Below, piece by piece: positions 7,241 through 34,638 of a DNA stretch of 64,000 bases. Under the pieces are notes generated by a model. The model was not told the DNA's origin and searched no databases. It saw only the letters and a list, made by a program, of their open reading frames with translations. The position numbers and the translations under genes are program-made. This stretch comes from an uncultured Acidobacteriota bacterium (lineage in GTDB: Bacteria > Acidobacteriota > Vicinamibacteria > Vicinamibacterales > Fen-181). Where the stretch lies: contig CAWAMP010000014.1 of the NCBI GenBank assembly GCA_963783255.1, positions 135,692 to 199,691 on the forward strand. The letters run 5' to 3'. Positions within the stretch are counted from its first letter, which is position 1. Every line of letters starts with the position of its first letter.

Positions 7241-10134
7241 TCAGCCGGGTGGACCCAGGTATCGGTCGAACCAGCCGAGCGTTTCGCGGATCGCTTCGTT
7301 GAGCGGGAGATTGTGGCCCGTATCGTACAGAATCCGGCGCTTGTGGTCGGTGGGCGTCCCGAGCACCTGGAAGAACGGGAGCGACGAAGAATCCTCGGGG
7401 AAGTTGTAGTCGTAACGCCCGCTCAACTGCAGCACGGGAATCGTCACCCGGGGCGCGAAATTGATGGGGTCCACCTCGGCCGCCATCTGCTCGAGATAGA
7501 GGCCGGGGACCCACAGCGCTGCCACCTTGATCCGCGCTTCCGGCGCGAGCATCATCGGCGACAGCGCCGCACCGCGACTGTTCCCGAGGTATCCGATTCT
7601 GCCCGAATCGAGTTCGGATCGCGTGGCGAGATAGTCGATGGTGCGGCGCAAATCCTTCGAAAAGTAGATCACATAGTCGCGCCAGAGACTGGTGGACTTG
7701 AGCTGATCGCCGCCGTGGTACTCGTTGTCCGAGCGTTCGTAGGATCCCTTGAACACAGGGAAAGCGACGGCACGACCGGTCCTCACCAGAAATGCAAACG
7801 TGGGATTGGCCAGCGGGGGGCTCGCGCGTTGGTCCCATGCGCTGGAGCCGGGCATGTACACGACGGTCTGATACGGCGGCCGCCCCTGCTTGGGCAGGAA
7901 CAGGTACACGATCACGCGCTCCTGTCCGTAAGCCGCAGCAAAAGAGACCCTCTCGAGGCGCCAGTCGGGATAGCTGTCGTCCGCGAGTTCGACCTTCGGC
8001 GCCAGCGCTGTGCTGTCGTACCAGGTACAGACGCCGGTACGCTTCGAATACGGCGTCGCCAACGGGCTTTTCCTTCGCGTAGTTGCGCGTCGGCGGGCTC
8101 AGCATGCCGCTGACGGCCGCGACCGACGCGTCGCCGTCGTCGTACTTCACCGTCCGGAACCCCGTGTTGCGCCCGCGGTCGAAGGGGGACCGGGCGTCGG
8201 CGTCTCTGAACATGTAGGGAGGCTCGTCCCAGCCGCCCCCCAGAACATAGCGGCGATTGCCGGGCGCCTCGTTGAAGCACCACTCCTTCACGTTGCCGGC
8301 CAAGCCGTAGGCGCCAAACCGATGGAGCGCACGAGTCTGGGCGACTGGCACCGGAGCGGTCGCGTTGAAGTTGCCGAACGGAATGACGTACCCCGTGAGG
8401 CTCTGGGAGGCCACCCAGTACCAATGATAGGCGGTCGGGAGCGCGTGCCCCTTGAATGCCGCGTAGGCCGCTGCCTCGTACCAACTGACGCCGCTGACCG
8501 GGAGTTCTGCAGACCCCGCCGGATAGCTGCCTTGTTCCCAGATCGCCGGACCGGGCCGGCCTGTCGAGTCGACGAAGAACGGGACGGCCTGGTCAAAGGT
8601 CAGCACCTTGCCTTCCCTGATGAACGGTGGTGTCCACCAATCGCGGCGTTTGTAGCCGCCGGCATCCACGAACGCTTTGTACCTGACGATTGGTCACTTC
8701 GTAGCGGTCGATCCAGAAGCCGCCGAATGTCACGCGGGGCGTTTCGAGACCGAAGACGTAGATGGAGAAGTTGCCTCGCACGGGCGATGCGCGCACCATG
8801 CCTTCCGGCGACGAGCCACTGGCGGCGAGGGAGAAGGCCGGAATGCCGGAGGTCACGTCTTCGGCAGGATCGAACCCGGGCTTCTCCGCCTTGAAGCGGA
8901 GCAATCCGATTGGGATTCGCACGTCCTTTACCGGTGTGCTTCCGATCCTCCGCCACCTAGCGTCTGTGCCGTAGCTGGCGTACGAGATGTCAGCGCCGGG
9001 CGGGACGCTCTCGATGGTCACCGTCCGTGCGATCCGGGGCCACAACGCCGCCAATTCTGCGTCGCCCGGGAGCAACGCCTCCGCTTGTCCGGCAAGATCG
9101 ACGGCGTCCACCAAGTCCTGTCGATCGGCCAGGCGCGCGATCTCGGGCACGGCGGTGTACCGCGCCCAGCGCCGCTTGGCCATCTTGTTCCCGAACACGG
9201 CGGCGAACCCGATCACGACAACGAGTGAGACCGCCAGAGGAATTGCCACGATCGGCCGTCGCAGCGTTCGCGACCGAGCCGACGGGACCGCCGCCGCCGT
9301 CCGGTCGCGATACTTCGCGATGACCTCGACAGCATCACCGGCAGTCAGTGTTCGACGCTCCGGGTCCTTGACGAGGGCGTGATCGACGAGCGTGGCGAAC
9401 TCCGGTGGGGCGTCCGGGCGCAGCGAACGGAGGGACGGCGCGGCTTCCGTGGCCAGCGCCAGGAGAATGGCGGACGCGGTCTCACCGCGAAAGGGCAACC
9501 TGCCTGTGAACATCTCGAAGATCAGCACGCCCAGCGCCCAGACGTCCGCGCGGTGATCCACCGGCACGCCGCGAGCCTGCTCCGGCGCCATATACGAAAC
9601 CGTCCCGAGCGTGGTGCCCACCGAGGTCAAGCCCGAAGTGGTGTCGCGCGAATCGGTCTCGACCTTGGCCAGGCCGAAGTCCAGGATCTTCACCTGCCCG
9701 GACGACGTGAGGAAGATGTTGGCGGGCTTGAGATCTCTATGGGTCACGCCGGCCGCGTGCGCCGCCTCGAGGCCCTCGGCGATGTGTCCTGCGATCGACG
9801 CGCACTCCGCGACGGACAGGGGCCCATGCTCGATGCGGCTCTTCAGTGTCTCTCCAGAGTAGTACGCCATCGCGATGAAGAGCTGTTCGTGGAAGTCGCC
9901 CACCTCGTAGACAGTCGCGATGTTCGGATGATCGAGGGAGCTGGCCGCCTGAGCCTCGAGCAGCAAGCGACGCCGCGCGGTCTGGTCCTGGGACGCGGAA
10001 GGAGTGATGAACTTGAGGGCGACCTTGCGGTGGAGCCGCTCGTCCTCTGCGAGATACACGACACCCATGCCCCCGGCCCCGATCTGCTCGAGGACTCTGT
10101 AGTGCGAAACAACGGCACCAGGCAGGGGATCCAT
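7241..10134 (-). pseudogene. receptor Ser/Thr kinase - FGE/SUMF1-like domain - alpha/beta hydrolase, broken by two 1-nt frameshifts (or sequencing errors)
   Basis: Three track ORFs (8593..10134, 7203..8669, 7241..8062) are colinear with the intact paralog at 40580..43693. They cover the kinase (HRDLKPANIFL, DFGLAK), a TM segment, WIDRYEVTNRQ | YKAFVDAGGYKRRDWW ... VSGVSWYEAAAYAAF ... NVKEWCF (FGE-like), and then YLGNSRGAAL ... DTGHNLP (hydrolase). Frame changes occur at about 8682/8683 and 8021/8022. Confidence 0.8.
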
Positions 10135-10243
10135 GGTCGGTTCCGCGCGGATTATAGCAGAGCGCTGTCAACCTCGTGCCGGGCGAACCATGACGCGGCC
10201 GACAATGCCCTGGGCCGTGCGCCGCTGTTATACTCCCCCCGAT

Positions 10244-10378
10244 ATGAACGGCGAAGGTCCTGACGCCACCGTGGTCCCGGACTCGCGCAGCCGCGCCCGT
10301 ACCTACCTGGCCGTGATCCTGGTCGAGGCGCTGGTCATCGCAGGGCTGTACCTGTTCGGCCGCTACTTCTCGGCCTGA
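10244..10378 (+). CDS. small single-helix membrane protein upstream of the symporter (possible accessory subunit)
   Basis: The ATG at 10244 gives [44 protein letters not shown]. The stop lies 8 nt before the symporter ATG. High GC3. Confidence 0.4.
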
Positions 10379-10386
10379 CAAACCGC

Positions 10387-12081
10387 ATGCACCTCATCGA
10401 CTGGCTCGTCGTCGGCGCCTACCTCGTGTGGATCGTCCACGACGGGCTCACGCGCACGCGGTCGGCCAACGAGATGGACGGCTACCTGCTGGCCAAGCGC
10501 AGCCTGCCGTGGTGGGCCGCGGGCCTCTCGGTGATGGCCACGCAGCTGAGCGCCATCACCCTGGTGGGGACGACGGGGCAGGGGTACGCCGACGGCATGC
10601 GCTTCGTGCAGTTCTACTTCGGCCTGCCGATCGCGATGGTGATCCTCTCGCTCACGGTGGTGCCGTTCTTCTTCCGCGCGCGGGTCTACACCGCCTACGA
10701 GTATCTCGAGCAGCGGTTCGACGCGAAGACGCGCGGCCTGGCCACGCTGCTGTTCCTGGCCGGCCGAAGCCTGTCCTGCGGCGTCATCATCGCGGCGCCC
10801 GCCGTCATCCTCTCGATCGTGCTCGGGTGGAACCTCACGCTGACCGTTCTCGCCATCGGCGTGCCGACGGCGGTCTATACGATGTTCGGCGGCGTGCAGG
10901 CGGTGGCGTGGACCGACGTCAAGCAGATGGCCGTCGTGGTCTTCGGCGTGCTCGCCGCCGTCGCGGCGCTCATCGCCGGGCTGCCGCACGACGTGTCGCT
11001 CGGCCAGGCGCTGCACATCGCGGGCGCGGCCGGCCGGCTCCGGACGCTCGATTTCTCGTTCAACCTCGCCGAGAAGTACACCGTCTGGTCCGGCACCATC
11101 GCCAGCCTGTTCCTGATGCTGTCCTACTTCGGCTGCGATCAGAGCCAGGTTCAGCGATACCTCACGGCGAAGTCGATCGACGAAGGCCGCAGTTCGCTGA
11201 TGATGAGCGCGTTCGTCAAGATCCCGCTGCAGGCGCTGATCCTGCTCACGGGCGTCCTGGTGTTCGCCTACTACCTGTTCGTGCAGCCGCCGATGCTCTT
11301 CAACCCGGTCCACGAGGCGAGCATCGAGTCCAGCCCGCGGGCGGCCGAGTTCCGTCAATTGGAGCGCCAGTTCGGCGCGGCGTTCGACGAGCGGCGGCAG
11401 GCGGCGCTGGCGCTGGTGGCCGCCGGAGAGAGCGGCGACCAGCCGCGCCTCGCTTCGGCGCGCGCCGCCTTCAAGGACGTCGACGAACGGCTCAAGGCAA
11501 ATCGGTTGCAGGCCAGGGGCCTCGTCAGGGCGGTGACGGGCGACGCGGTCTACGACGATGTGAACTACGTGTTCCCGACGTTCGTGACCACCCGGCTGCC
11601 GATGGGGCTGGTCGGGCTGATCATCGCCGCGATCTTCGCGGCCGCGATGTCGGCGAGCGCGGGCGAAATGAACGCGCTGGCCACCTCGACGGTCATCGAC
11701 GTCTATCGCCGCCACATCCGAAAGGGGGCGGCCGACGCGCACTACCTGCTCGTGTCGAAGGCGGCCACCGGGTTCTGGGGACTCGCGGCGTGCGCGTTTG
11801 CGGTGTACGCGGCGCAGGCGGGTTCGCTGATCGAGGTGGTGAACAAAGTCGGTTCGCTCTTCTACGGGACGATCCTCGGCGCCTTCATGCTGGCGATTGG
11901 GACGAAGCGCGCCAACGGGCACGGCGCGTTTGCCGGGATGCTCGCCGGCTTCGCCACGGTGCTGCTCGCCGCCCGGTACTCCGCCATCTCCTACCTCTGG
12001 TACAACGTCGTCGGCGCCGCCGTCGTCGTCGCGGTCGGCCTCCTCGTGAGCGTCGTGACCAGACCAGCGCCCGCGCGCTGA
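10387..12081 (+). CDS. sodium:solute symporter (SSS) family transporter
   Basis: 564 aa and multi-TM. The N-terminal pattern [36 protein letters not shown] ... [11 protein letters not shown] is typical of SSS. Confidence 0.9.
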
Positions 12082-12085
12082 CGCT

Positions 12086-12357
12086 CGGCCAGAACAACCA
12101 CGAAGCTCACAAAGGACACAGAGGCTCCCACGCGGAGGGCTTCGACGATGCCCCGGCTTCGCCGGGGCGTCCGGCGGGAGGCCGGGCGGCGCGTGCACGA
12201 ACCCGATGGCACGCAGGTCGGGCTCGTGCGCGCACCGCCAGGCCTTCCGCCCGGGCCTGTTGGCCCGGCGTCGAAGCCCGTTGTGCCGCCACGCGGGAAC
12301 ACGTGACTTGAGCGCGCCTCCGTGAGCTTTGTGCCCTCCGTGGTGATCAGTCGTGGG
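12086..12357. repeat. ~270-bp nested-palindrome intergenic element, copy 2
   Basis: Same block order and orientation as 2055..2328. Long-range complementary arms include gggcttcgacg / cgtcgaagccc and gtgcacgaaccc / gggctcgtgcgc. Confidence 0.6.
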
Positions 12358-12437
12358 CGAAGTAGCAGCGGAACATGTTGTGTCTAAATGGTTTGTCTGC
12401 CATGAGATCTGAGCCTGACGGCCAGACACAAAATATC

Positions 12438-12468
12438 GGACTCAATCAGTCCTGTATCGTGTTATATT
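12438..12468 (+). promoter_or_regulatory. candidate suf promoter/operator: palindrome ggactcaatcagtcc plus extended -10-like tgttatatt
   Basis: Lower-GC stretch about 100 nt upstream of sufB. Perfect 5-bp arms ggact/agtcc at 12438..12452. TATATT at 12463..12468 is preceded by TGT. No good -35 element. Confidence 0.25.
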
Positions 12469-12566
12469 GGAGACCATATCGGTCGGAGTGGCAGGTTGAC
12501 CGGGAGCCGTCGGCCCCCAATTCCGGTCAGCGGCGGCTCCGGCTGTCATTATCCAGAGAGTCGGGC

Positions 12567-14012
<1,446 letters not shown>

Positions 14013-14020
14013 GCACGCAC

Positions 14021-14092
14021 GGCATCTGGCGATCTTGCGATCTTGCGATCTTGCGAAGTGGCGATCTTGCGAAGTGGCGAAGTGGCGAAGTT
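14021..14092. repeat. octamer tandem array (GCGATCTT / GCGAAGTG, 9 units) inside the sufB-sufC spacer
   Basis: Read directly: ggcatctg gcgatctt gcgatctt gcgatctt gcgaagtg gcgatctt gcgaagtg gcgaagtg gcgaagtt. Confidence 0.85.
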
Positions 14093-14108
14093 GGGAGCGA
14101 GTGAGACG

Positions 14109-14855
<747 letters not shown>

Positions 14856-14874
14856 GGCTTGAGTCTCCAGGCGT

Positions 14875-14902
14875 AAGGCTCAAGGCTCAGGGCTCACGGT
14901 AC
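14875..14902. repeat. heptamer tandem repeat A(A/G/C)GGCTC in the sufC-sufD spacer
   Basis: aaggctc aaggctc agggctc acggtac. The same unit recurs at 34642..34680. Confidence 0.5.
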
Positions 14903-14915
14903 GAGGCGCGACGAG

Positions 14916-16241
14916 ATGGCGACGATGACAGACACGCATCTGGCGACGGCCGGCAGCATCGAGGCGGCGCGCGCGCACGAGCCCGCCTGGCTCGGCGACC
15001 TCCGCCGCTCGGCGGCGGCCGCCTTCGAGAAGATGGGATTCCCCACGACCCGGGACGAGGAGTGGCGCTTCACGAACGTCACGCCTATTGCCGGGACGGC
15101 GTTCGTCCCCGCACCGCCGGCGGTGGTTGCGAAGAGCGCGGTTTCCAGGTTCGCCGTGCCCGGACTGGCGGGGCCCGTGATGACGTTCGTCAACGGGCGG
15201 TTTGCCCCCCGGCTCTCCACTCTCGACGCGCCGCCGACCGGCCTGACGGCCGGTTCACTCGCCGACGCCATCGCTCGGAACCCGGCGAGTCTCCAGCCGC
15301 ACCTCGGCCGCTACACGGACTTCACAACCCGGCCGTTCGCCGCGCTCAACACCGCGGCGTTCGAGGACGGTGCGCTGGTGGCCATCGCCGACAACGTCGT
15401 GGTCGAAGAGGCGATCCAGTTGCTCTTCCTGTCGACGGTGACGCCGGCGCCAGCCGTCTCCCACCCGCGGGTGCTTATCCTTCTCGGCCGGAACAGCCAG
15501 GCGCGCGTGGTGGAGACGTTCGCCGCCGTGGGGCCCTCGGGCGGCTTCACGAACGCGGTCACCGAGATCGTCGTCGGCGACGGCGCGGTTCTCGATCACT
15601 ACCGCGTGCAACGCGAATCCGTGTCGGCCTTTCACGTCGGCCACACGCAGCTTCAGCTCGGGCGCTCGAGCCGCTCCTCGTCGCACTCGGTCGCGCTCGG
15701 CGGCCTGATCGCCCGGCACGACGCGGTGGCCGTGCTCGGCGACGAAGGCGCGGACTGCACGCTGAACGGCCTCTACCTCGCCGGCGGCACCCAGCTCGTC
15801 GACAACCACACCGAGATCGACCATGCGGCGCCCCACGGGACGAGCCACGAACTCTACAAGGGCATCCTCGACGGGAGCGCCCGGGGCGTGTTCAACGGAC
15901 GCATCCGCGTCCGGCCCGACGCGCAGAAGACCGACGCGAAGCAGACGAACAAGACGCTCCTGCTCTCCGGCGACGCCCAGATCCACACGAAGCCGCAGCT
16001 CGAAATCTTCGCCAACGACGTGAAGTGCACTCACGGCGCCACGGTCGGGCAGCTCAGCGAGGACGCCCTCTTCTACCTGCGCGCCCGCGGCATCGGCCTG
16101 GACGATGCGCGGAGCCTGCTGGTGAAGGCGTTCGCGACGGACGTGACGAGCCGGATCACCCTGGAGCCGGTTCGCGCCGAACTCAACCGGCTGCTGTCCG
16201 CCCGGCTGCCCGGCGCGCCGGCCGAAGAGGCGTTCGCATGA
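14916..16241 (+). CDS. sufD: Fe-S cluster assembly protein SufD
   Basis: 441 aa located between sufC and sufS. Conserved C-terminal SufB/D block (HTEIDHAAPHGTSHELYKGILDGSARGVFNGRI ... THGATVGQLSEDALFYLRARGI). Confidence 0.9.
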   Translation: MATMTDTHLATAGSIEAARAHEPAWLGDLRRSAAAAFEKMGFPTTRDEEWRFTNVTPIAGTAFVPAPPAVVAKSAVSRFAVPGLAGPVMTFVNGRFAPRLSTLDAPPTGLTAGSLADAIARNPASLQPHLGRYTDFTTRPFAALNTAAFEDGALVAIADNVVVEEAIQLLFLSTVTPAPAVSHPRVLILLGRNSQARVVETFAAVGPSGGFTNAVTEIVVGDGAVLDHYRVQRESVSAFHVGHTQLQLGRSSRSSSHSVALGGLIARHDAVAVLGDEGADCTLNGLYLAGGTQLVDNHTEIDHAAPHGTSHELYKGILDGSARGVFNGRIRVRPDAQKTDAKQTNKTLLLSGDAQIHTKPQLEIFANDVKCTHGATVGQLSEDALFYLRARGIGLDDARSLLVKAFATDVTSRITLEPVRAELNRLLSARLPGAPAEEAFA

Positions 16242-19637: not shown

Positions 19638-20657
19638 ATGACCGGACCCGCCCAGCGCGCCGTGAGGCCGTCCCGCGATTCCGAACGCGGTTTCTCGCTC
19701 ATCGAGACGATGGTCGCGATGGCGTTGCTCCTCATTGTTTCGGCAGGGATGATGGAGGGGATGCTGCAGCTGTCGAGAGTCCAGAACTCCGTGTACAACA
19801 GGTCGGCGATGCACGACGGCGTCCGCAGCGCCACCGAGCTGCTTCAGCAGGAGGTCGGGCAGGCGGGCAGCATCACACTGCCCGAGCCCGTCAGGCTGCT
19901 GCAGGCGGTGGCTGCCGGCCCGAATACCACCGTCACCGTCGACTCGGTCTCGAACATGTTCGTCGGCGAGCACCTCGTCATCGGCGCGGGCTCCTCCGAA
20001 GAGACGGTCCTGGTCGCCGCCATCGGCACGAGCCCGCCTTCGATCACCGCGACGTTTGAAAAGGCGCACAACGCAAACGAGCCTGTTGCGGTTCGTGGCG
20101 GTTTCGCCACCGGCGTCGTGCCATGCGCCAGTCAGGCCGCCTGTCCGGGGTCGGCCGTCGGCACCACGACCTTCCCCAACGGATCCACCGCCTACCTGAT
20201 GAAGCTCTACGGGGACATCAACGACGACGGGCGCATGGTGTATGTCGAGTACAGGTGCGACATCGACGCGGGAATCCTGTACCGGAACGTGATCGAAAAC
20301 GCGGTCACGCCAGGCGCTGCGCCGACGAAGACCGCGGCGGGTCCGACCCAGGTCCTGCTGGACAACCTCACGGACCCGGACACGGGCCGCGTTCCGTGCT
20401 TCGTCTACCAACAGCAGACGGTGTCCCCCCATATCTTCGTGATCAACGTCGCGATCTCGCTCACGACGCGGGCGCAGTTCAGGGACCGCAGTGCCGGGAT
20501 TCAAAAGGAAACCAAGTCGCTCCTGAACGTCGCGCCGAGAAACGTCTTCAACTCGTGGCTGCTGGCCAGCATGGCCACGAGCGACAGGGTGCACGGGATA
20601 CCGCAGAGCATCAGGGACCTGTTGCCACCGCCGATCGTGGTTACTGCCCAGCAGTAA
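19638..20657 (+). CDS. PilW-like minor pilin
   Basis: SERGFSLIETMVAMALLLIVSAGMMEG N-terminal methylation-type motif. 339 aa. Confidence 0.7.
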   Translation: MTGPAQRAVRPSRDSERGFSLIETMVAMALLLIVSAGMMEGMLQLSRVQNSVYNRSAMHDGVRSATELLQQEVGQAGSITLPEPVRLLQAVAAGPNTTVTVDSVSNMFVGEHLVIGAGSSEETVLVAAIGTSPPSITATFEKAHNANEPVAVRGGFATGVVPCASQAACPGSAVGTTTFPNGSTAYLMKLYGDINDDGRMVYVEYRCDIDAGILYRNVIENAVTPGAAPTKTAAGPTQVLLDNLTDPDTGRVPCFVYQQQTVSPHIFVINVAISLTTRAQFRDRSAGIQKETKSLLNVAPRNVFNSWLLASMATSDRVHGIPQSIRDLLPPPIVVTAQQ

Positions 20658-20718
20658 TAGGGTGGACGGCATGCCTCAGCGCATCGCGATGCTGTTGCCA
20701 ACGCCGTAACGGACCGGG

Positions 20719-22209
20719 ATGGAAGATATGAACAGGACTGACGAAAAGGGAATGGCGCTGATCCTGGTGATGATCATGCTGGCGGTGCTGTCCGTCATCG
20801 CTGCGTCGCTGATGGCCGTGTCCACTGCCGACACGGCGTCCAGCACCAACTACAGGCTGATGACCCTCGCCAGGTACGGCGCGGAAACGGCCGTTCACCG
20901 GGCCGCCAACTATCTGATGAGCAACGCGTACGCGGCGGCAGGGCCAGGCACCGGGGCGGATCCGCTCACCAACTACGACATCACCGCTCCCTACCCCGGC
21001 AGCCTGGATCCCGTCACGAACCTGCGCGTGGTGACCTACGGTGGCGCTCCGGTCAGGCTGTCGCACAGTGCGACGAGTTTCAACTACCCGGGCGGGTTCG
21101 GGGGAACGGTCGGGACCGCATACCGGGCCGCGTCCACCGGGACGCTGGCCGTGACACTGCCCGGGGCGTACGTGGTCACGTATCGCGCGGTGGCAACGCT
21201 CGTCTCGATGCGCCTGGTCGATGTCCTCGGGGGAGGGACTCGCGTCGTCCAGACCTGGAAGATCACGGGCGAGGGCGTCATGCCGTCCACCGGCGCCGTG
21301 ATCGATGTGTCTTCGATCCTGGAACGGCAGGTCCAGCCGACCTTCAGGTACGCCGCCTTCGCCGTCGCCAACGAATGCAAGGCGCTCTGGTGGACGGGCA
21401 ACGGGACTGTTGACAGCTACGATTCGACCTCGCCGCTGGTTGCCGGGGCGCCGGTCATCTCGAATACCGACGGCAACGTTGGTACCAACGGCCAGCTGTG
21501 GGTGGCGAACAACTCCAACGTCTATGGCAGCCTTTCGGTTCCCCCACCTCAGCTCTCTAATTGCCTCCCACAGCTCGTGGGTTCGGCCCAGGTCCAGGAC
21601 GGGACAGTGTATCTGCCTCAGACCGTGAGCTACCCGACCCCGGACCCGCCCAATCCGATGCCGGGAACGGGCAACGAGATGATCAACGTGAATACGGACT
21701 TCAACCCCCCGACTCTCGACGAGAACGGCAACCTGGTCGGTGCGACCCACGCCGACGTGAACGTGCAGGCCGGAAGGACGCTGACACTGCACGCCGGCAC
21801 GTACAACATGAACAGCCTGTCACTTGCCGGCGGTGCGACGCTCGTCATTGCCGGAACGGGCAACGTCGTCATCAACCTCGCGGGGCAGGGCTACAACACG
21901 GGCCAGTCGGTGCTCGACATTGCCGGCAACACCATCTCGACCGGGAGCTACGATCCTGCCAGGCTCCAGATCATCTACGGCGGCGAGGCGACGGTCGGAT
22001 TGTCGGGCAGCGGCGAGACGTCGGCTCTTCTCTATGCACCGAACGCGACGGTCAACATGAATGCCGCCGGGGGCCACTGGTACGGTGCGGTGATCGGCAA
22101 GACAGTCAAGGACGCGTCAGCCGCCCTGCACTACGACCGCTCGCTTCAGCGGAAGATGATGACGCTCGGCGCCTTCATGCTCGACTCGTTCACCTGGCGG
22201 AAGTTCTAG
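20719..22209 (+). CDS. PilX-like minor pilin / pilus tip-associated protein
   Basis: N-terminus EKGMALILVMIMLAVLSVIAASLMAVS ... YRLMTLARYGAETAVHRAANYL (PilX-N-like). Long Gly/Thr/Asn-rich beta-rich C-terminal part. Confidence 0.7.
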   Translation: MEDMNRTDEKGMALILVMIMLAVLSVIAASLMAVSTADTASSTNYRLMTLARYGAETAVHRAANYLMSNAYAAAGPGTGADPLTNYDITAPYPGSLDPVTNLRVVTYGGAPVRLSHSATSFNYPGGFGGTVGTAYRAASTGTLAVTLPGAYVVTYRAVATLVSMRLVDVLGGGTRVVQTWKITGEGVMPSTGAVIDVSSILERQVQPTFRYAAFAVANECKALWWTGNGTVDSYDSTSPLVAGAPVISNTDGNVGTNGQLWVANNSNVYGSLSVPPPQLSNCLPQLVGSAQVQDGTVYLPQTVSYPTPDPPNPMPGTGNEMINVNTDFNPPTLDENGNLVGATHADVNVQAGRTLTLHAGTYNMNSLSLAGGATLVIAGTGNVVINLAGQGYNTGQSVLDIAGNTISTGSYDPARLQIIYGGEATVGLSGSGETSALLYAPNATVNMNAAGGHWYGAVIGKTVKDASAALHYDRSLQRKMMTLGAFMLDSFTWRKF

Positions 22210-25419: not shown

Positions 25420-26436
25420 CTAGCGGGTGATCGTGATCTCCTGGTTGAGGTGCTGCAGCGCATTCTTGCGGATGTGCTGGCGCGCGCCGTAGCCCACCAT
25501 CAGCAGCTCGGCGGCGGGGATGCGCCCGCCGCCGATGCGCGGCAGCAGCGACTGGATCCACACCGCCGACAGTCCCATCGCGAGGTCCTGCCGGATCGTC
25601 GGCTGGCGTTCCGGCGGAAAGTTGTCCGCGATGCGGCCCACGGTGGCCGCCACGTCGGTCGTGTGCATGGTCGTCAGCACGAGGTGCCCGGTCTGCGCCG
25701 CGGAGAGCGCAATGCGCATCGTCTCTGGATCGCGCATCTCGCCGACGACGATGACGTCCGGCGCCTGCCGCACCACCGCGCGCAGCGCCGTCGGGAAGTC
25801 GGGCGCGTCGATGCCGATTTCCACCTGTTCGACCACCGAGCGGTCGTGGACGTGCTCGTACTCGATGGGGTCCTCAATCGTGACGATGTGGCGATGGTCG
25901 CGCCGGTTGATTTCATCGACCAGCGCCGCGAGCGTGGTCGTCTTGCCGGAACCGGTGGCCCCGCCGATGACGACCAGACCGTGCGGGATGCGGGAGAGCG
26001 GTTCGACGCCCGCGGGCAGGTTCAGGCTGGCGAGCCTGGGTACCCGGGTCGGCAGGGCGCGAATCGTGGCCGCGGCGTGGCGGCGTTCGTGGTGGAGATT
26101 GATCCTGAAGCGCCCGAGGCCGGGGAGCTTCAGCGAGGCGTCCGCGATGCCGGTCTCGTCGTAGCGCTGCTGCGCGTAGTCTGGAAGGGCGGGCCGGACC
26201 GCCTGGTCGATCTCCTCTCCGTCGAGGACCAGCTCGTCCAGCCGGACCACCTGTCCGTCGATGCGCACCGCCGGCGGGCTGCCCGCCACCAGCATCAGGT
26301 CGGCCCCCTTCCGGTCGATCAGCGTTCGAAGCCACACCTCGAGACGGCTCGTATCGGGCGCGGGTGTCGGGGCTGCCGCGGGGACGAGGGAATTCAGCTC
26401 GCCAGCCAGCTCGTCCGGGTCTTCGTGCCACGGCAT
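25420..26436 (-). CDS. pilT: type IV pilus retraction ATPase PilT, ending at an in-frame TAG that is followed by more PilT-like sequence
   Basis: Walker A GATGSGKTTTLAALVDEIN, IVTIEDPIEYEH, VVGEMRD, GHLVLTTMHT. After TAG (25422..25420) the same frame continues for 43 codons (AGSFTLEDYLAVLVRRRLVEKSEAMLRAWHPEEFEKALATPPC) to the TGA at 25290..25288. Confidence 0.9.
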   Translation of the reverse strand: MPWHEDPDELAGELNSLVPAAAPTPAPDTSRLEVWLRTLIDRKGADLMLVAGSPPAVRIDGQVVRLDELVLDGEEIDQAVRPALPDYAQQRYDETGIADASLKLPGLGRFRINLHHERRHAAATIRALPTRVPRLASLNLPAGVEPLSRIPHGLVVIGGATGSGKTTTLAALVDEINRRDHRHIVTIEDPIEYEHVHDRSVVEQVEIGIDAPDFPTALRAVVRQAPDVIVVGEMRDPETMRIALSAAQTGHLVLTTMHTTDVAATVGRIADNFPPERQPTIRQDLAMGLSAVWIQSLLPRIGGGRIPAAELLMVGYGARQHIRKNALQHLNQEITITR

Positions 26437-26462
26437 GCGACCACCGCCTCTCCCGGGTTATT

Positions 26463-27677
26463 ATGCCCGCTATGACGCCCGAGGTGATCCGCCGGCTGCC
26501 GAAGACGGACCTCCACGTCCACCTCGATGGTTCCCTGAGGCTTGCCACGCTGATCCGGCTCGCGCGGCGGCAGGGGATCGCCCTGCCGTCGTACACCGAG
26601 GACGGGCTGCGGGAAGTCGTCTTCCGGGCGAACTACGCCAACCTCGGTGAATACCTCGAAGGATTCCGCTACACGGTCGCCGTGCTGCAGGACCACGAGG
26701 CGCTCGAGGAGACCACATTCGAGTTGTGCGAGGACTGCCAGGCCGAGGGCGTGCGCTACATCGAGATCCGGTTCGCGCCGCAGCTGCACGTCGGGCCGGG
26801 GCTCGACTTCTCCGGCGCGGTGCGCGCCGTCGACGCCGGGATTCGGCGCGCGGCCGCCGCCTTCAATACCCGACCCGAAATCGCATCCGGCGTCGAGCCG
26901 CGCTTCGTCGCCGGGATCATCCTGTGCGCCCTGCGCGCCTTTACCCCGGACTTCTCCGAGGGCTACCGCCGGATCTTCGAGGCGCTGCCCGAGGCGTCCG
27001 CCCAGGAAGTGCAGGCGGCCGCGAGCGTGCAGGTGGCGCGCGCGGCGGCCCGGCTCAAGCACGACGAAGGGCTGCTCGTCGTCGGCATCGACCTGGCGGG
27101 CCAGGAGATGGGGTATCCCGCCGAGGAGCATCGCGTTGCCTACCAGGTGGCGCACGAGGCGTTCCTCGGCAAGACGGTGCACGCCGGCGAGGACTACGGG
27201 CCCGAGTCGATCTTCCAGGCCATCGGGAACCTCCACGCCGACCGGATCGGCCACGGGACGTGGCTGTTCGACGCGTCGAAGATCGCGGACCCGCGCATCA
27301 CCGACCGGACCGCATACGTGGAGCGCCTGGCGCAGTTCATCGCGGACAAGCGGATCACGATCGAGGTCTGCCTGACCTCCAACCAGCAGACGGTCCCCGA
27401 ACTCGGTGCCGAACTCGGCCAGCATCCGTTCCGGGAGATGCGGAAACGTCGGCTGTCGACGACGCTCTGCACCGACAACCGACTGGTGTCGAACACGACC
27501 GTGTCGAACGAGATTCAGCGCGCGGTGGAGGCGTTCGGGCTGACCGACCGCGAGCTGCTCGACATCCTGCTGTACGGTTTCAAGCGCAGCTTCTTCCCTG
27601 GCACCTACCTCGAGAAACGCGCCTACGTCCGCGAGACGATCGATTTCGCGGACGCGGTGAGGAGCAGCGGACAATAG
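26463..27677 (+). CDS. add: adenosine deaminase
   Basis: LPKTDLHVHLDGSLR, TVHAGEDYGPESI, EVCLTSNQQT and TLCTDNRLVSNT are the metal/active-site motifs of the family. An alternative ATG lies at 26472. Confidence 0.9.
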   Translation: MPAMTPEVIRRLPKTDLHVHLDGSLRLATLIRLARRQGIALPSYTEDGLREVVFRANYANLGEYLEGFRYTVAVLQDHEALEETTFELCEDCQAEGVRYIEIRFAPQLHVGPGLDFSGAVRAVDAGIRRAAAAFNTRPEIASGVEPRFVAGIILCALRAFTPDFSEGYRRIFEALPEASAQEVQAAASVQVARAAARLKHDEGLLVVGIDLAGQEMGYPAEEHRVAYQVAHEAFLGKTVHAGEDYGPESIFQAIGNLHADRIGHGTWLFDASKIADPRITDRTAYVERLAQFIADKRITIEVCLTSNQQTVPELGAELGQHPFREMRKRRLSTTLCTDNRLVSNTTVSNEIQRAVEAFGLTDRELLDILLYGFKRSFFPGTYLEKRAYVRETIDFADAVRSSGQ

Positions 27678-27696
27678 GCCGAGTTACACTCTCCGA

Positions 27697-28512
27697 ATGG
27701 CAGACACGGCGAAGACGGCGAAGAGGACCGCGCTGATCACCGGCGCGTCGGCGGGCATCGGCGCGGCGATCGCGAGGGTGTTCGCCGCCAACGGTTTCGA
27801 CCTTGTGCTCACCGCGCGGCGCGCTGACCGGCTCGAGTCGCTCGCTGCCGAGCTTCGCGCGGCTCACGGGCGCGCGGTGCACGTGATCGTCGCCGACCTG
27901 GCCGACCCCGGCGCGCCCTCGCGCATCTTCGACGAGGTCGAGAGGTCGGGCCTCGTCATCGACGCACTCGTCAACAACGCCGGCTACGGCCTGCCTGGAG
28001 GGTTCCTGCACTCCTCCTGGGACCAGCACCGTGATTTCATCCAGGTCATGGTGACGGCGGTTGCCGAACTCTGCCACCGGTTCGCGCCCGCCATGGCAGA
28101 CCGGCAGCGGGGCTGGATCATCAACGTCGGTTCGGTCGCGGGTCTCGTGCCCGGGTCCGCCGGACACACGCTCTACGGCGCGGCGAAATCCCTGGTCATC
28201 CGCTTCTCGGAATCGCTCGCGCTCGAGCTGCTCCCGCGCGGCGTCCACGTGACGGCTCTCTGCCCGGGCTTCACCTACAGCGAGTTCCACGACGTGAACG
28301 ACATGCGGGCGCAGGTGAACCGCCTGCCGAAGTGGATGTGGATGGACGCCGACACGGTGGCCCGGCAGGCCTATGACGCGGTCATGCGCGGCGACGTCGT
28401 CTACGTCAACGGTCGCGTGAACCGGGCGATGGTCTCGCTGGTGCGCCACTCACCGGACTGGCTGATCCACAAGGTCCTGAAGCGCTTCTCGAAGAAGTTC
28501 AGGCGGGTATGA
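27697..28512 (+). CDS. short-chain dehydrogenase/reductase (SDR)
   Basis: TGASAGIGAAIA cofactor motif, NNAG, and YGAAKSLV (YxxxK). Confidence 0.85.
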   Translation: MADTAKTAKRTALITGASAGIGAAIARVFAANGFDLVLTARRADRLESLAAELRAAHGRAVHVIVADLADPGAPSRIFDEVERSGLVIDALVNNAGYGLPGGFLHSSWDQHRDFIQVMVTAVAELCHRFAPAMADRQRGWIINVGSVAGLVPGSAGHTLYGAAKSLVIRFSESLALELLPRGVHVTALCPGFTYSEFHDVNDMRAQVNRLPKWMWMDADTVARQAYDAVMRGDVVYVNGRVNRAMVSLVRHSPDWLIHKVLKRFSKKFRRV

Positions 28513-28515
28513 TCC

Positions 28516-29154
28516 TCACCGCGTCTTCTTGCTCACCATCACCCCTGCGCTGAAGCTCGTCTCCAGGTTCGGCTGGCTCCTGACCCACCCCGAGTAGTCG
28601 CCCGTCATCTGGCGGCGGCCGCCGTACTGCGAGACGTTGTGCGCCGTCATCAGTCCGCCCACCGTCAGCTTCGGCAACACCGCCGTCGCGTAGTTCGTGT
28701 ACCACTCCTTGTCGGCGTCGATGAAGACGAAATCGAACGGCCCCTCGAGCTTCGGCACGAGGTCGTGCGCGTCGGCCAGCCGCGCGTCCACGAAGGCCGC
28801 CACGCCGGCTTCCTTGAAGTGCCCGACCGCCTCGCGATGGCGCCCCTCGTCGATGTCGATCGTGATGAGCTTCCCGCCGGTCTTGCTGAGCGCCCACGCG
28901 ATGTGGATCCCCGAGTGCCCGGTGGACGTGCCAATCTCGAGCGCCCGCTTGCAGTTGTTCTTGAGGACGAGATCGTAGAGCGCCTGCCCGTCCGCGTCGG
29001 GGACGTTCATGTCGCGCCACGAGTAGCGGTGCTGATCCAGGAAGCGCTTGACGGAGGCGTCAATCGGGTCCGCCTTGTCCTGAGTGACCGCGACGGGAAC
29101 TCCGACAAGCAGCACGACCGCCAACGCCGCCACCAGCAATGATGTGAACCGCAC
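28516..29154 (-). CDS. class I SAM-dependent O-methyltransferase (family 3-like) with N-terminal signal peptide
   Basis: MRFTSLLVAALAVVLLVGVPVAVTQD, then ALEIGTSTGHSGIHIAWAL ... LITIDIDE ... FDFVFIDADKEWY. Confidence 0.8.
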   Translation of the reverse strand: MRFTSLLVAALAVVLLVGVPVAVTQDKADPIDASVKRFLDQHRYSWRDMNVPDADGQALYDLVLKNNCKRALEIGTSTGHSGIHIAWALSKTGGKLITIDIDEGRHREAVGHFKEAGVAAFVDARLADAHDLVPKLEGPFDFVFIDADKEWYTNYATAVLPKLTVGGLMTAHNVSQYGGRRQMTGDYSGWVRSQPNLETSFSAGVMVSKKTR

Positions 29155-29313
29155 GAGGGCGCCCTCCTTGTCGGTGCTTACGCCGCCGGCAGCGCAAGCG
29201 CTTACGAGAGATGCCCCGGCAGCCTCTCAGGCCGAGGCCGATCAACGCCTCGCCCGGCCAGCGGCCGACCCTTCGGCGTCAGCTCCGACCGACATGGATG
29301 TCAGGATCTCCCT

Positions 29314-30045
29314 GTGGCCGCCACCGTCATCCTCGGCCTTCTCCTCGCGCTTGGCGCAACCTTCGTGTCCATGGCGCTGCTCGTCCGGACCGGTTTCGGC
29401 CGCGGGCCCCACGCCATCAGCCTGCTGCCGGTCCCGCTGGTCCTCTACTGCCTGTGGGCGTCGGCGTGGTTCGCGTTCGAGTTCCTGCGGCAATTCCTGC
29501 TGACCGCGTTCACGCCGGGCACATCGCTCCGCATGGTAGCGTTCGTCTTTCTGGCCGCCGCGCTCTTCATGGTCGGCTTCCTCTACGGGTGCGTTGCAGT
29601 GGTGCACCAGTTCCTGGGCGGAACGACCGCGCGGCGGGTCCGCGCTGTGGCGAGATGCGTGGCGCCAACGTTTTCGGCGCTCCTCGTCGTCGGGTGGAGC
29701 GGCTATCACTACAACGGCGACGCCGCTCTGTTCACGCTGCTGCGCCGCATCCTGGGCTACACCGGGTTTCCCCTCGCGCTCGGCGCCTGGGTCTGGCTGC
29801 TGCTGGGCGCCAGGGCCATCCCGGATGCGCCGTGGCGCGCGCGCGTGGTCACGCTGGCGCGCGCCTGCGCGGCGTTCTTCTCTGTCGTGGCGCTGGCCGC
29901 GGCCGGGCGGGACCGTCTGGAGGCCGTCGCTCCGGTGCTTCCGCTCGCCATCGATGTCTTCCTGGTGCTGGCCTACACGCTCATCACCGTTCTCTGGGTG
30001 GAATCGGTCGAGAAAGCAGCCCACGCCCGGAACCGGCAAGCCTGA
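29314..30045 (+). CDS. hypothetical integral membrane protein (about 7 hydrophobic segments)
   Basis: 243-aa ORF with a GTG start and high GC3. Repeated hydrophobic stretches (ILGLLLALGATFVSMALLV, LVLYCLWASAWFAFEFL, MVAFVFLAAALFMVGFLYG ...). No recognisable family. Confidence 0.6.
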   Translation: MAATVILGLLLALGATFVSMALLVRTGFGRGPHAISLLPVPLVLYCLWASAWFAFEFLRQFLLTAFTPGTSLRMVAFVFLAAALFMVGFLYGCVAVVHQFLGGTTARRVRAVARCVAPTFSALLVVGWSGYHYNGDAALFTLLRRILGYTGFPLALGAWVWLLLGARAIPDAPWRARVVTLARACAAFFSVVALAAAGRDRLEAVAPVLPLAIDVFLVLAYTLITVLWVESVEKAAHARNRQA

Positions 30046-30122
30046 GCCCCGGGCCTCGAGTCCGCCGAAGCCGGCCCGTGTTTCCGGCGGGCGAAGGCGG
30101 AAGAGAGTGTAGAATCCCCCGC

Positions 30123-30905
30123 ATGGAACTTCGACTCTACCAGGTGGACGCGTTCGCCGATCGGCTGTTCGGCGGCAATCCCGCGGCGGTCTGCCCGCTC
30201 GACGGCTGGCTGCCCGACGAGACGATGCAGCAGATTGCGGGGGAGAACAACCTCGCCGAAACCGCCTTCTACGTGCGCGACGGCGGCGGCTTCCACATCC
30301 GATGGTTCACGCCGACCGTCGAAGTGGACCTCTGCGGCCACGCCACGCTGGCCTCGGCCTACGTGGTCTTCACCCACGACCGCCATGCGGGCGAGGTGGT
30401 CGAGTTCTCGTCGAAGAGCGGCCCGCTGAAGGTGAGGCGCGAAGGCGACCTGCTGGTGCTCGACTTCCCGGCCGACCCGGTGGCGCCCGTCTCCGTGCCG
30501 CAGATGCTGATCGAAGCGCTCGGCCGCGAGCCGACCGAGACCTACAAGGGAAAGACGGACTACCTGGTCGTCTACGGCATCGAGGAGCACGTGGCCGCGC
30601 TCACCCCGGACCTCTGCGACCTCGCCATGGTCCCCGCCCGCGGCATCATCGTCACCGCCCCCGGCCGCCAGGTCGATTTCGTCTCGCGGTTCTTCGCGCC
30701 CCAGGTCGGCGTTCCCGAGGACCCGGTGACGGGCTCGGCGCACACGACGCTCACGCCCTACTGGTCCGCCCGGCTTGGCAAGATGGAACTGTCGGCCGTG
30801 CAGCTTTCCAAGCGACAGGGGCGCCTGCGGTGCCGCCTGGCGGGCGACCGGGTGGAGATCGCCGGACGCGCGGTCCCCTACCTGGCAGGGACCATCACTG
30901 TCTAG
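30123..30905 (+). CDS. PhzF-family isomerase
   Basis: MELRLYQVDAFADRLFGGNPAAVCPL ... NLAETAFY ... IRWFTPTVEVDLCGHATLA ... EDPVTGSAHTTLTPYW. Confidence 0.9.
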   Translation: MELRLYQVDAFADRLFGGNPAAVCPLDGWLPDETMQQIAGENNLAETAFYVRDGGGFHIRWFTPTVEVDLCGHATLASAYVVFTHDRHAGEVVEFSSKSGPLKVRREGDLLVLDFPADPVAPVSVPQMLIEALGREPTETYKGKTDYLVVYGIEEHVAALTPDLCDLAMVPARGIIVTAPGRQVDFVSRFFAPQVGVPEDPVTGSAHTTLTPYWSARLGKMELSAVQLSKRQGRLRCRLAGDRVEIAGRAVPYLAGTITV

Positions 30906-31001
30906 AGGATCTTGCGATCTTGCGAACTGGGGATCTTGCGAACTGGGGATTCTGCGAACTGGGGATCTTGCGAACTGGGGATTCTCGAACCTTCGGAATC
31001 C
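30906..31001. repeat. octamer tandem array (GCGAACTG / GGGATCTT, 12 units) ending in a hairpin
   Basis: aggatctt gcgatctt gcgaactg gggatctt gcgaactg gggattct gcgaactg gggatctt gcgaactg gggattct cgaacctt cggaatcc. The last units form the hairpin ggggattc..gaatcccc (30977..31003). The array starts 1 nt after the phzF-like stop. Confidence 0.85.
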
Positions 31002-31199
31002 CCGTCATTCGGCTGAAGTTCTCGCGAGTTTGGTCGATAAACCCATAAGGGACGAGAGTTTGTCAAGCCGGGTATTTCCCTGACGGTCCTCAAGCAGTCA
31101 GAGCGGTGATCGGCCGGAATGACCCACCGGCGCTGACTCGGCGGGCAAGTCGTGCCGTCGTGAACTGGGGTGAATCGCGACGAGTTGGCACCTTGTACC

Positions 31200-31228
31200 T
31201 TGACAGTACAAGCTCTAGTGTGTAGAGT
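31200..31228 (+). promoter_or_regulatory. sigma-70-like promoter TTGACA-N17-TAGAGT for the cytochrome/porin pair, overlapped by palindrome CTTGTAC-N7-GTACAAG
   Basis: ttgaca at 31200..31205, a 17-nt spacer, and tagagt at 31223..31228. The inverted repeat cttgtac (31192..31198) / gtacaag (31206..31212) brackets the -35 element. It lies in a lower-GC 360-nt spacer, about 140 nt upstream of the ATG at 31372. Confidence 0.35.
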
Positions 31229-31371
31229 TTCTCGGCGGTGGGCCGTGCGGAATATACGGGCCAGCGTCCCCTGATCGGGTCGTCCAACCGCAGGTTCGGT
31301 CTCGGTCCTTCTATCACGTTCATCGGTCTCGAGGCGGACGTCCGTCGAGGCCAGTCGAAGAGGAATTCCTT

Positions 31372-32308
31372 ATGCGCCTTCGCCACATCGTTCTGGCGCT
31401 GGCCGGAGCGGCCGTTCTGCTCGGAGGCAGTCATGCCTTCGCGCAGAAAGCCGCGCCGCCGGCGGGCTGGAGCGCGACGGACTGCCAGTCGTGTCACGAC
31501 AAGGCTGCCGGGCCAGCGTTCCAGAAGACCAAGCATGCCGCCAGCGAACAGAGCTGCGCAGCCTGCCACACCAACGTTGCCGAGCACATGAAGGGCCAGA
31601 TGGGCGGCGACAAGAACGCCCCGACTCCGTCGCTCAAGAAGATGACGGCGCGGCAGATCAACGACGCCTGCCAGAAGTGCCACGAGAAGAACAATCAGCT
31701 CAGCTACGACACCAGCCTGCATGCGCGTCGCAACGTGGCCTGCACGTCGTGCCACGGGATCCACGAGGTACAGCTCGGTGAAGGCCCAGCTGAAGACGAA
31801 GATGGACGCCGACACGTGCTACACGTGCCACAAGTCGCAGCGCGCCCTCTCGATGCGCACCTCGCACCATCCGGTCCGCGAAGGCAAGATGGGCTGCGCG
31901 AGCTGCCACAACCCGCACGAGGGTAACCGCCCGAAGATGCTGAAGGCCGATTCGGTGAACGAGCTGTGCTACACCTGCCACACCGAGAAGCGCGGTCCCT
32001 TCCTCTTCGAGCACGCTGCCGTCCGCGAGGACTGCGCGTCGTGCCACGAGCCGCACGGCTCCAACCACAAGCGGCTGCTGAAGAACAAGGCGCCGAACCT
32101 GTGCTGGAACTGCCACCTCTCCGGCTCCGGCCACTTCGGGTCGGGCGACAACTTCAACAACGAAAAGGGCGGCGTGCCGGTCGCTCCGACTGGCGCTCCC
32201 TCCGGTTATCCGACGATGGGTTCGCGGTTTGTCGAGAAGAGCTGCAAGAACTGCCACGTCAGCGTCCACGGTTCCAACTCGCCGCAAGGCGCCTACTTCC
32301 TGAGGTAA
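31372..32308 (+). pseudogene. decahaem c-type cytochrome, DmsE/MtrA/PioA/MtoA family, interrupted by one 1-nt frameshift at about 31768 (or sequencing error)
   Basis: Track ORFs 31372..31926 and 31721..32308 join as ...CTSCHGIHE|YSSVKAQLKTKMDADTCYTCH. Signal peptide MRLRHIVLALAGAAVLLGGSHAFAQ. Ten CXXCH motifs. Family block CHTEKRGPFLFEHAAVREDCASCHEPHGSNHKRLL and C-terminal CKNCHVSVHGSNSP. Confidence 0.85.
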
Positions 32309-32311
32309 ACC

Positions 32312-34638
32312 ATGAAGAGAGCATTTACGACGACAGCGCTCCTCGCCATGGTCGCCCTCATGGCGAGTTCGTTTGCGGCGGCGCAGGACAAGCCGGCCAG
32401 CAGCTTCGGCGGGGAAGTCACCCTCGGCGCGCTCGGCCGCACCGACGTGTCCTCCTCGAAGTTCCAGGAGTACCGCGAGGTTCCGAAGGGTCTTTCGCTC
32501 CCCTACATGAACCTCTTCGCGACGACCACGAAGCTGGACTTCAACCTGATGGTCGACAACGTCCGGCAGTCCGACCAGCGCTACGCCGGCTGGTTCAATA
32601 CGGGCATGTTCGACCTCGGGTTCGACTATAACCAGACCCCGCACAACATGGGGAACTCCGCCCACTCCGCCTGGAACGAGACGGGCACGGGCGTCTGGGG
32701 CATGAACACGGTTCTCACCACGGCGCTCGCCAACGCGACCGACCCGCTCGCGAGTTCGGCGCGGACCTACGATTTCTACAACAACCTGCTCGCGCCGGTG
32801 TTCGCGGACACGAACACCTACGATGTGAGCAGCCTCCGCCAGCGCGGCACGGTCACGCTGGACCTCAGCAAGAAGCTGCCGTTCGACTTCGCGTTCACCT
32901 ACATGCGCGAACACAAGTCGGGCTACCGTGGCGAGGGCGGTGGTGACATTCTCGGCTGGGTGTCGCCGATTGTCGATCTCGCCGAGCCGCTCAACGAGTC
33001 CACGCAGGACTACGGGTTCCGCGCCGGCTACAACCTCAAGCCGGGCGGCGTGCTCAAGGCGGGGAACATTCACGGGACGTTCAACCGCAACGTGTTCAAC
33101 AACAACGCCGAAACGCAGTTGATTGACAACCCGTTCCGCCCGAACAACCTGGCGTACGCGTCGGGTGTTCCGACCGGCTCGGCGACGACGCTGTTCACCA
33201 CGGCGCCCGACAACGAGGCCAGCACCGGTTCGGTCGGCTTCCAGCTGAAGTTCGCCAAGCAGACCCGGATTGCCGCGGACTTCGCCATGGCATCGTGGAC
33301 GCAGAACGCCGCGTTCTACCCGATGACGCTCAACCCGCTCATCGTGAACGGCTCCGGGCAGCCGACCAACTCCACGGCGTCGTACCCGGCGTCGTCGCTG
33401 AACGGAAAGATCAGCACCGACACGACGAACGTCTACTTCTCGACCAGACCGATCGCGGATCTGGGCGTTCGCGTGCAGTACCGCAGAGTACGGGTACAAG
33501 GACAAGTCGGCTCGCTTCGTCATTCTGGGCGACACGTCCGGCTCGCCTGACAACCGCTGGCAGGCGGCCACTGTGTCGGCGGACGACCCCTACGGCCACG
33601 CGACGGCGAATCGGACGGACGCCGACACGTCGTACTTCACCGTCCAGGCCAACTACGACATCAAGGCGTTCACCGTTGAAGGCGCGTACAAGAATGCGTC
33701 GAGTTCGTGGGTGGGACGCACCGGGTCCTCCGGCGACTCAGGCGAGGAGAAGACCTACACGCTGGCCCTTCTGTATCACGCCAGCGACCTGCTCGGCTTC
33801 CGCTTCATGAACGACTGGGCGAACCGGACGGTGAGCGGCGTCGTGGCAGGGTCCGTGGCGGCGGTGCAGGGCGTCATGTCTGACCACGCCGAGCGCGACC
33901 TGACCCGTACCGGGTTCAATGTCGAGTTGACGCCCAACGACAAGGTCGACGTGACGTTCGCCTACTTCCGCAACAACGCCGAGTATCCGAACCGGCCCGC
34001 CGAAGGGATTGACGACCCCACGGCGTTCTCCGGTCTGCTCTCGGCGAAGTACGACTCGTTCACCGGCGAGGTGGGTTTCCGCCCGAACGCGAAGCTCGAA
34101 CTGGACGCCTACTACACCTACGAGACGAACGACCAGACGAACCAGTGGGTAGGGCTGACCAACAGTACCCTACGTGAACAACAAGCTCAACTACGCCGGC
34201 AGCGACAAGACCAACACGTTCGGTCTCAACTTCGTCTACAACATCATTCCCGACAAGTGCTCGTTCAGGCTGCTGGCCCGCCAGCAGAAGGTGGACGGCT
34301 TGATGGACATCACGGCGAAGGAGACGCTGGCGCCGGGCGCGACCAGCAACTTCTACACGCCGGGCCGCACGACCCTGATCCCGGCCGGGCAGGGCGGCGC
34401 CGCGGATGTCACGGACTGGGACGACACGAAGATCACGACGTTCGGCATGCAGATCGACTACGCGATCGCAAAGTCGTGGAAGCTGGCCGGCGGGTACGCC
34501 TACGAGAAGTACGACTACACGGATCCTTACACGAGCGGCGCGACGCAGTTCCCGATTTCGGTCTTCTTCGCAGCGAAGGCCGACTACGGGTCGTACGAGG
34601 CGAACGTGGCCTACACGACGCTGACGTATCGGTTCTAG
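32312..34638 (+). pseudogene. MtrB/PioB-like outer-membrane beta-barrel (decahaem-associated porin), interrupted by two 1-nt frameshifts (or sequencing errors)
   Basis: Track ORFs 32312..33550, 33573..34643 and 34174..34638 join colinearly (...RVQY|AEYGYKDKSARF... and ...LTNST|YVNNKLNYAGSDK...). Signal peptide MKRAFTTTALLAMVALMASSFAAAQD. Alternating beta-strand pattern, terminal ...AYTTLTYRF. The gene starts 4 nt after the cytochrome stop. Confidence 0.75.

Follow-up and report, generated by a model that had tools for sequence, protein, structure and literature searches.

Why should four otherwise well-conserved genes be broken by frameshifts in DNA that is densely and cleanly coding, and why should the breaks lie, in five of six cases, within 2 nucleotides (nt) of the same tetranucleotide, GTAC? 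The question is raised by a 64,000-nt stretch from an uncultured bacterium of the acidobacterial order Vicinamibacterales (assembly GCA_963783255.1, contig CAWAMP010000014.1, positions 135,692 to 199,691 of the forward strand), analysed here whole and called the window. The answer favoured by this work, to which we give a probability of about 0.75, is that the six frame breaks are motif-linked single-base insertion errors in the assembly consensus and are not in the organism's DNA. The genes concerned (for a kinase-FGE-hydrolase, a decahaem cytochrome with its MtrB/PioB porin, and a gamma-glutamyltranspeptidase) are probably whole in vivo, and the GTAC-adjacent frameshifts most likely do not belong to the organism's biology.

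The window is Vicinamibacterales-like, has a G+C content of 68.1% and contains 176 copies of GTAC, i.e., one per 364 nt or 2.75 per kb, in good agreement with the G+C of about two-thirds and the rarity of GTAC assumed in a preliminary description of this DNA. Frames were assigned by a seven-state Viterbi segmentation, using a codon-usage model trained on the window's own long open reading frames (ORFs), and about 50 genes were obtained. Changes of frame on the same strand with no intervening stop or start are seen only at 8019/20, 8689/90, 31766/7, 33483/4 and 34168/9 (sites 1 to 5 below, in that order), always in the +1 direction, i.e., with one surplus base each, and the codon-usage signal, now in the new frame, loses none of its strength beyond each break. 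The remaining same-strand switches are normal operon junctions (SufD/SufS/SufU, the pseudopilin genes, and three genes at 61.4-64 kb). An apparent break at 30045/30133 turned out to be two distinct genes, for a membrane protein and PhzF, and a search for extra hidden frameshifts in the long 'non-coding' gaps of the window gave no further coding signal. A sixth frameshift, for which the preliminary description had given no position, is found at C2399. All six lesions are one type of event, a +1 insertion of G or C, and each is mended by deleting one base. They fall in four genes:

7241-10134, minus strand: Ser/Thr protein kinase with FGE-sulfatase domain and alpha/beta-hydrolase-like C-terminus, 963 amino acids, with two +1 insertions that leave three ORFs
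31372-32308, plus strand: periplasmic decahaem c-type cytochrome, MtrA/DmsE-like, 311 amino acids, one +1 insertion
32312-34638, plus strand: outer-membrane beta-barrel porin of the MtrB/PioB family, 774 amino acids, likewise broken into three ORFs by two +1 insertions
2325-3894, minus strand: gamma-glutamyltranspeptidase, struck close to the 3′ end by the sixth +1 insertion

Once a single base is deleted at each site, the ORFs of 963, 311 and 774 amino acids are free of stops; no secondary decay (further stops, indels or decayed codon bias) was seen in them, and they match intact homologues end to end. The pieces of the kinase gene match the Pfam families Pkinase and FGE-sulfatase, and an intact paralogue of equal architecture lies at 40593-43538. 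The cytochrome has 10 CXXCH motifs, matches Paired_CXXCH_1 and other cytochrome families in Pfam and, once corrected, aligns end to end at 69% identity with the intact orthologue in L001/L038. Of the porin, the first fragment already matches MtrB_PioB (PF11854, E = 1.9e-25), a family also carried by its full-length homologues; once corrected, the porin can be aligned along its whole length (100%) with over 100 full-length homologues from a protein search, of which the two best are 87% and 84% identical, and end to end with that of L001 at 52% identity. In the gamma-glutamyltranspeptidase the Pfam match (G_glu_transpept) ends at position 495 of the 512 of the profile, and the conserved C-terminus, GGSDPRKDGLAIGY followed by the stop, sits in the next frame.

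Two ORFs of the window, looked up as exact proteins, had no entry, and general scans of genome and metagenome contigs gave relatives of 52-53% amino-acid identity at best. Much closer ones, 86-96% identical to the window, are found among contigs from soil, sediment and wetland metagenomes, mostly of undeclared platform. These lack each of the surplus bases; they come from no fewer than six independent metagenome runs, together with one contig of a metagenome-assembled genome (MAG), and the lesions are confined to the present record, being shared with none of the relatives examined. One 2095-nt contig, 89% identical over 7222-9297, shows gaps only at the two kinase sites. A further comparison is with L081 (ena:ERZ25039503:contig_33169), a metagenome contig of 1.08 Mb found through the porin search (84% amino-acid identity), which is syntenic with the window over 26.8-48 kb at 87-94% identity and has one base fewer at 31768, at about 33487 and at 34168. 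Read on the plus strand, the six sites are:

8024-8025, site 1: surplus G in a GG run abutting GTAC 8025-8028; relatives omit 8024 and read GTACGAGTAC
8682-8683, site 2: surplus C in a CC run abutting GTAC 8679-8682 (TGTACCTGA at 8678); relatives omit 8682
31767-31768, site 3: surplus G in a GG run abutting GTAC 31768-31771; relatives omit 31767/8
33486, site 4: surplus G in GCA[G]AGTAC, one base 5′ of GTAC 33488-33491 and 4 nt 3′ of GTAC 33478-33481; relatives omit 33486
34168-34170, site 5: CCC run, probably CC in truth, abutting GTAC 34165-34168; two contigs, each 96% identical, omit 34168
2399, site 6: surplus C in GATCT[C]GAAT, one base 3′ of GATC 2394-2397; relatives omit 2399 (five contigs), 2398 or 2401

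Some of these placements differ from those first proposed. Site 1 had been put at C8021/2, which does abut a GTAC (8018-8021); the window reads GTAC-CAG-GTAC as opposed to GTAC-GA-GTAC in the relatives, and deleting G8024/5 is the cheaper solution, at the cost of one substitution instead of two. Site 2 had been given as 8082/8083, where the window reads ...gcgtaGTtgcg and has no GTAC; the tGTACCtga quoted for it stands at 8678-8686, which puts the site at 8682/8683. Its mending restores the FGE motif RYEVTNRQYKAF, the counterpart of which in the paralogue is RYEVTNREYRAF. Site 4 had been placed at C33482. Four contigs from three runs match the window exactly around this site except for the missing G33486, and the homologues read QYRKY, KYRSY or RYRSY, with Tyr-Arg-Lys/Ser-Tyr in every one of them, and therefore the true reading is taken to be QYRKYGY, with G33486 as the surplus base. 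Sites 3 (31767/31768) and 5 (34169/34170, within the CCC run) remain where they were; the GTAC at site 3 is the only one in the cytochrome gene, and L081 reads cacgag-tac there. No GTAC occurs within 2000-2700, around site 6. By the most parsimonious placement, then, four of the six lesions directly abut GTAC and the fifth is one base off, so that the earlier statement of an extra C abutting GTAC at five of six sites fits four of them cleanly and, for site 4, has to be relaxed to a distance of no more than 2 nt.

Is this concentration at GTAC meaningful? Positions within 2 nt of a GTAC, the distance rule used here, make up 1.1% of the window, and the probability of at least five of six lesions falling on them is 9e-10, in keeping with the first impression that chance was a poor explanation; corrected for the 136 strand-symmetric 4-mer classes and two offset definitions, P is still ~2.5e-7, and no other 4-mer class comes near to more than three of the six lesions. 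The lesions are thus enriched at a single motif, as motif-linked consensus errors should be. Their rate is 5 per 176 GTAC (~3%), or about one per 11 kb, and the other 171 copies are clean, again as first described. If the surplus base is written as G on the strand where it precedes the motif, the five GTAC lesions appear as ccA[G]GTACA, tcA[G]GTACA, cgA[G]GTACA, gcA[G]AGTACG and gtA[G]GGTACT, and for the sixth site ttC[G]AGATC: the surplus G is preceded by A at all five GTAC sites, and GTAC itself is kept at all five. AGTACA is struck in 3 of 11 copies and other AGTACN in 1 of 64 (Fisher P = 0.009), a dependence on context that is typical of k-mer-dependent signal error. The genes with two lesions have the highest GTAC densities (15 copies, 5.2 per kb, in the kinase gene; 14 copies, 6.0 per kb, in the porin gene), i.e., the lesions follow GTAC density, and the reading on the sense strand is mixed (GGTAC at three sites, GTACC at two), i.e., they are tied to sequence context and not to gene orientation. 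Over the window as a whole, GTAC has an observed/expected ratio of 0.78 under a Markov model, which makes it the second most under-represented 4-bp palindrome after CTAG (0.21); GATC, with a ratio of 0.92, is close to expectation.

As to site 6, its geometry, GATCT[C], is that of site 4 on the minus strand, GTACT[C]. Matches to GATC amount to one lesion over 402 sites, and a chance co-occurrence has P ~0.01-0.03. This hints at GATC as a second, far less error-prone motif.

Surplus bases are not peculiar to the window. L081 has about ten single-base G/C insertions of its own, which split a glycogen phosphorylase and an O-methyltransferase gene (at 5353 and 20188-21929). All of its roughly 13 single-base insertions are at least 19 nt away from any GTAC, and the 48 GTAC of L081 are clean; as a rate, 0/48 does not differ significantly from the 5/176 of the window, and the platform of L081 is deduced from its contig name only, a Flye-style one resembling those of the Nanopore-only, once-Medaka-polished MAGs of PMC12313526. 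No clean common motif was found for the L081 insertions, most of which create CG or GCG (gag[C]gac, ggc[G]cag, cct[G]cga and cgg[C]gag among others). Since +1 insertions arise in L081 away from GTAC, the link to GTAC would be specific to the genome of the window. In the 87%-identical relative from JGI sample 3300075153, the prolyl oligopeptidase gene is annotated in two parts, 182 and 516 amino acids long, whilst it is a single gene of about 715 amino acids both in the window (37472-39616) and in L081; this split is probably another assembly frameshift.

A context-dependent consensus error is favoured because the lesions are linked to GTAC, missing from the relatives, uniform in type and free of secondary decay. 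We infer, in addition, that the platform was a long-read one and that a base modification is the trigger, just as we infer that the lesions are errors at all. On what we take to be the most likely mechanism GTAC, and perhaps GATC, would carry a modification in this bacterium; the modification would disturb the single-molecule raw signal around the site, and the basecaller or polisher would then emit an extra G beside A at a few percent of the sites. Consensus errors of Nanopore assemblies are known to cluster at or near strain-specific modified motifs (Lohde et al. 2024, PMC11610573; Liu et al. 2024, PMC11610603; PMC12392509), and the lesions of the window resemble them in four ways: the context is short and strain-specific, only a fraction of the motif copies is affected, there is a leaning to G or C (in the documented errors as A/G and C/T ambiguity), and the errors survive polishing. 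The difference is in the type of error, those documented for Nanopore R10.4.1 being A<->G and C<->T substitutions (PMC11610573; PMC11610603; PMC12392509), as opposed to the one-base G/C insertions that make up all events in a window whose platform and modification are themselves deduced. The artefact can therefore be said to work like the documented methylation-linked errors without being a documented instance of them. The proposal of the preliminary description, a motif-specific artefact in genes that are intact, is to this extent sustained as the best explanation of the motif statistics, the relatives and the lack of decay, and its methylation part is plausible.

Several observations do weigh against this explanation. 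All six events are insertions, and the literature searched on errors at methylated motifs, together with surveys of the Nanomotif type, reports substitutions but neither insertions nor GTAC; in one comparison on a high-G+C genome, moreover, the residual consensus errors of PacBio RSII were missing and not surplus bases. No DNA methyltransferase or restriction gene was found with Pfam among the ~51 genes of the window, the only methyltransferase being a small-molecule O-methyltransferase. GTAC is palindromic, yet each site is struck on one side only and 171 of the 176 copies are clean, which calls for a trigger that is weak or gated by context. At site 4 the surplus base does not touch its GTAC but stands one base away. 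Finally, a search for the window among the contigs of public sequencing runs, NANOPORE and PACBIO libraries included, gave a best word share of 0.11, a low value that is at the same time weakly consistent with noisy long-read-only data. Two more specific triggers were considered and left aside: PacBio kinetics, where a pause at N4-methylcytosine (m4C) would yield an extra G (the bases were missing, not surplus, in the RSII comparison), and flow-order effects of 454 or Ion sequencing, which are speculative and do not fit site 6.

The consensus could also be wrong without any modification, if co-assembled strains were merged in polishing or coverage was low, with the GTAC link being secondary. 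There is something to be said for this, as the relatives are polymorphic by substitution right at sites 1, 4 and 5 (at site 4 they read CGCAAG, CGGAGC or CGCAGC where the window has CGCAGAG, at site 5 AACAACACC where it has AACAGTACCC), and the merging of two such variants could add a base; L081, too, has insertions that cluster locally and share no motif. Sites 2 and 3, however, have no such local polymorphism, and merging leaves unexplained why five of six lesions should lie within 2 nt of one 4-mer, with the G/C always following A, so that we hold this explanation to be unlikely. Still less likely, in our judgement, is that the insertions are real. Some GTAC-directed damage or repair, which this Vicinamibacterales lineage would suffer or exploit, would then add G/C beside the site and pseudogenise non-essential, GTAC-rich genes. 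A candidate for it may be a restriction enzyme, nickase or glycosylase with specificity for GTAC, against which the DNA is incompletely protected and whose attack is followed by error-prone repair. The specificity for the motif is real, the under-representation of GTAC (0.78) would suit pressure from a GTAC-specific system, and the struck genes are plausibly dispensable, the Suf operon and others being intact. On the other hand, six insertions per 64 kb would amount to several hundred pseudogenes in a genome that is otherwise densely and cleanly coding; genuine pseudogenes would be expected to share lesions with relatives and to degenerate further, and here no lesion is shared, not even with the 96%-identical contigs, and secondary degeneration is not seen. 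Base-excision or cleavage damage would also be expected to alter the site, whereas GTAC is preserved everywhere. We know of no GTAC-directed insertion process of this kind.

That the frame is restored in vivo by recoding, i.e., by a +1 ribosomal frameshift or by transcriptional slippage, would agree with each corrected frame giving back a conserved protein. The sense-strand contexts are mixed, however, and share no slippery heptamer, the four genes are unrelated, and the orthologues, as well as the kinase paralogue at 40593-43538, are read in a single frame, which is not what programmed frameshifting predicts. Because of this mixed orientation, of the unrelated genes and of the single-frame orthologues and paralogue, a translational or transcriptional mechanism is excluded for practical purposes, and its probability is negligible.

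If the consensus error indeed stems from a modification, a known route to genome-wide modification of GTAC is offered by GTAC methyltransferases and restriction-modification systems. Such methyltransferases are known elsewhere (M.MjaV and M.MhuII, which make m4C; M.PabI and M.Hpy99XII, which make N6-methyladenine, m6A; 5-methylcytosine, m5C, is predicted). Like a genome with such a system, the window shows a mild avoidance of GTAC; unlike it, it holds no such gene, and the presence of one elsewhere in the genome is conjecture. Spurious pseudogenes derived from assembly are, for their part, common, and depend on platform, coverage or assembler (Cooley & Wright 2024, PMC11017572). The frameshifted genes of the window resemble them in being otherwise intact, and L081 shows the same class of defect, but the errors of the window are nearly all at one tetranucleotide and are not spread over homopolymers.

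The practical side of this is one of annotation. An annotation of this record would list the four genes as pseudogenes or break them into ten fragments, though they are most likely intact, and several hundred genes of the assembly would be falsely broken if the rate holds genome-wide. A table of the contexts of frameshifts at +/-2 nt is a cheap flag for motif-linked consensus errors that needs nothing but the sequence, and would indirectly predict the modified motif (here GTAC, perhaps GATC) ahead of any analysis at the signal level. Unless the surplus bases are real, the case is biologically ordinary and its value is one of quality control for annotation; if they are real, it would be that of a motif-targeted insertional mutator that is now pseudogenising GTAC-rich genes.

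Three of the lesions lie in a porin-cytochrome gene pair. Similarly to MtrAB, PioAB and MtoAB, the gene of a decahaem cytochrome precedes that of a porin by 4 nt, and the pair and its neighbours are kept in relatives among the Vicinamibacterales; a PF11854 porin with an adjoining multihaem cytochrome gene is what is expected of an MtrB/PioB porin with its decahaem partner. Unlike MtrAB-type loci with MtrC, no gene for an MtrC-like outer-surface cytochrome adjoins the pair in the window. The pair may serve extracellular electron transfer, in an acidobacterial order of which little is known.

The struck kinase gene is one of three for large Ser/Thr kinases in the 64 kb, all on the minus strand (7241-10134, 40593-43538 and 56409-59351). 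The first two are paralogues with the unusual arrangement of kinase, transmembrane segment, FGE-sulfatase and alpha/beta-hydrolase, and the third carries TPR repeats. An IS110-family transposase gene (DEDD_Tnp_IS110 and Transposase_20; 35952-37073, plus strand) lies between the AIM24/GYF and prolyl oligopeptidase genes, and has no counterpart at the same place in L081 or in the JGI relative.

Several intergenic regions of the window contain short tandem repeats. Arrays of four to eight copies of an 8-nt unit, GCGA(A/T)CTT or GATCTTGC, are found at 14024-14091, 30908-30990 and 45068-45130, and the octamer array 3′ of PhzF is also found by blastn in L081. Arrays of a 7-nt unit (GAACTCA / TCAGAAC) occur at 37414-37464 and 45126-45165. 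A longer repeat of about 19-20 nt, AGTCGG(N)GCTGACG..., is present in some four to five copies at 56222-56334, flanked on one side by a small gene and on the other by the 3′ end of the gene for the Ser/Thr kinase with TPR repeats.

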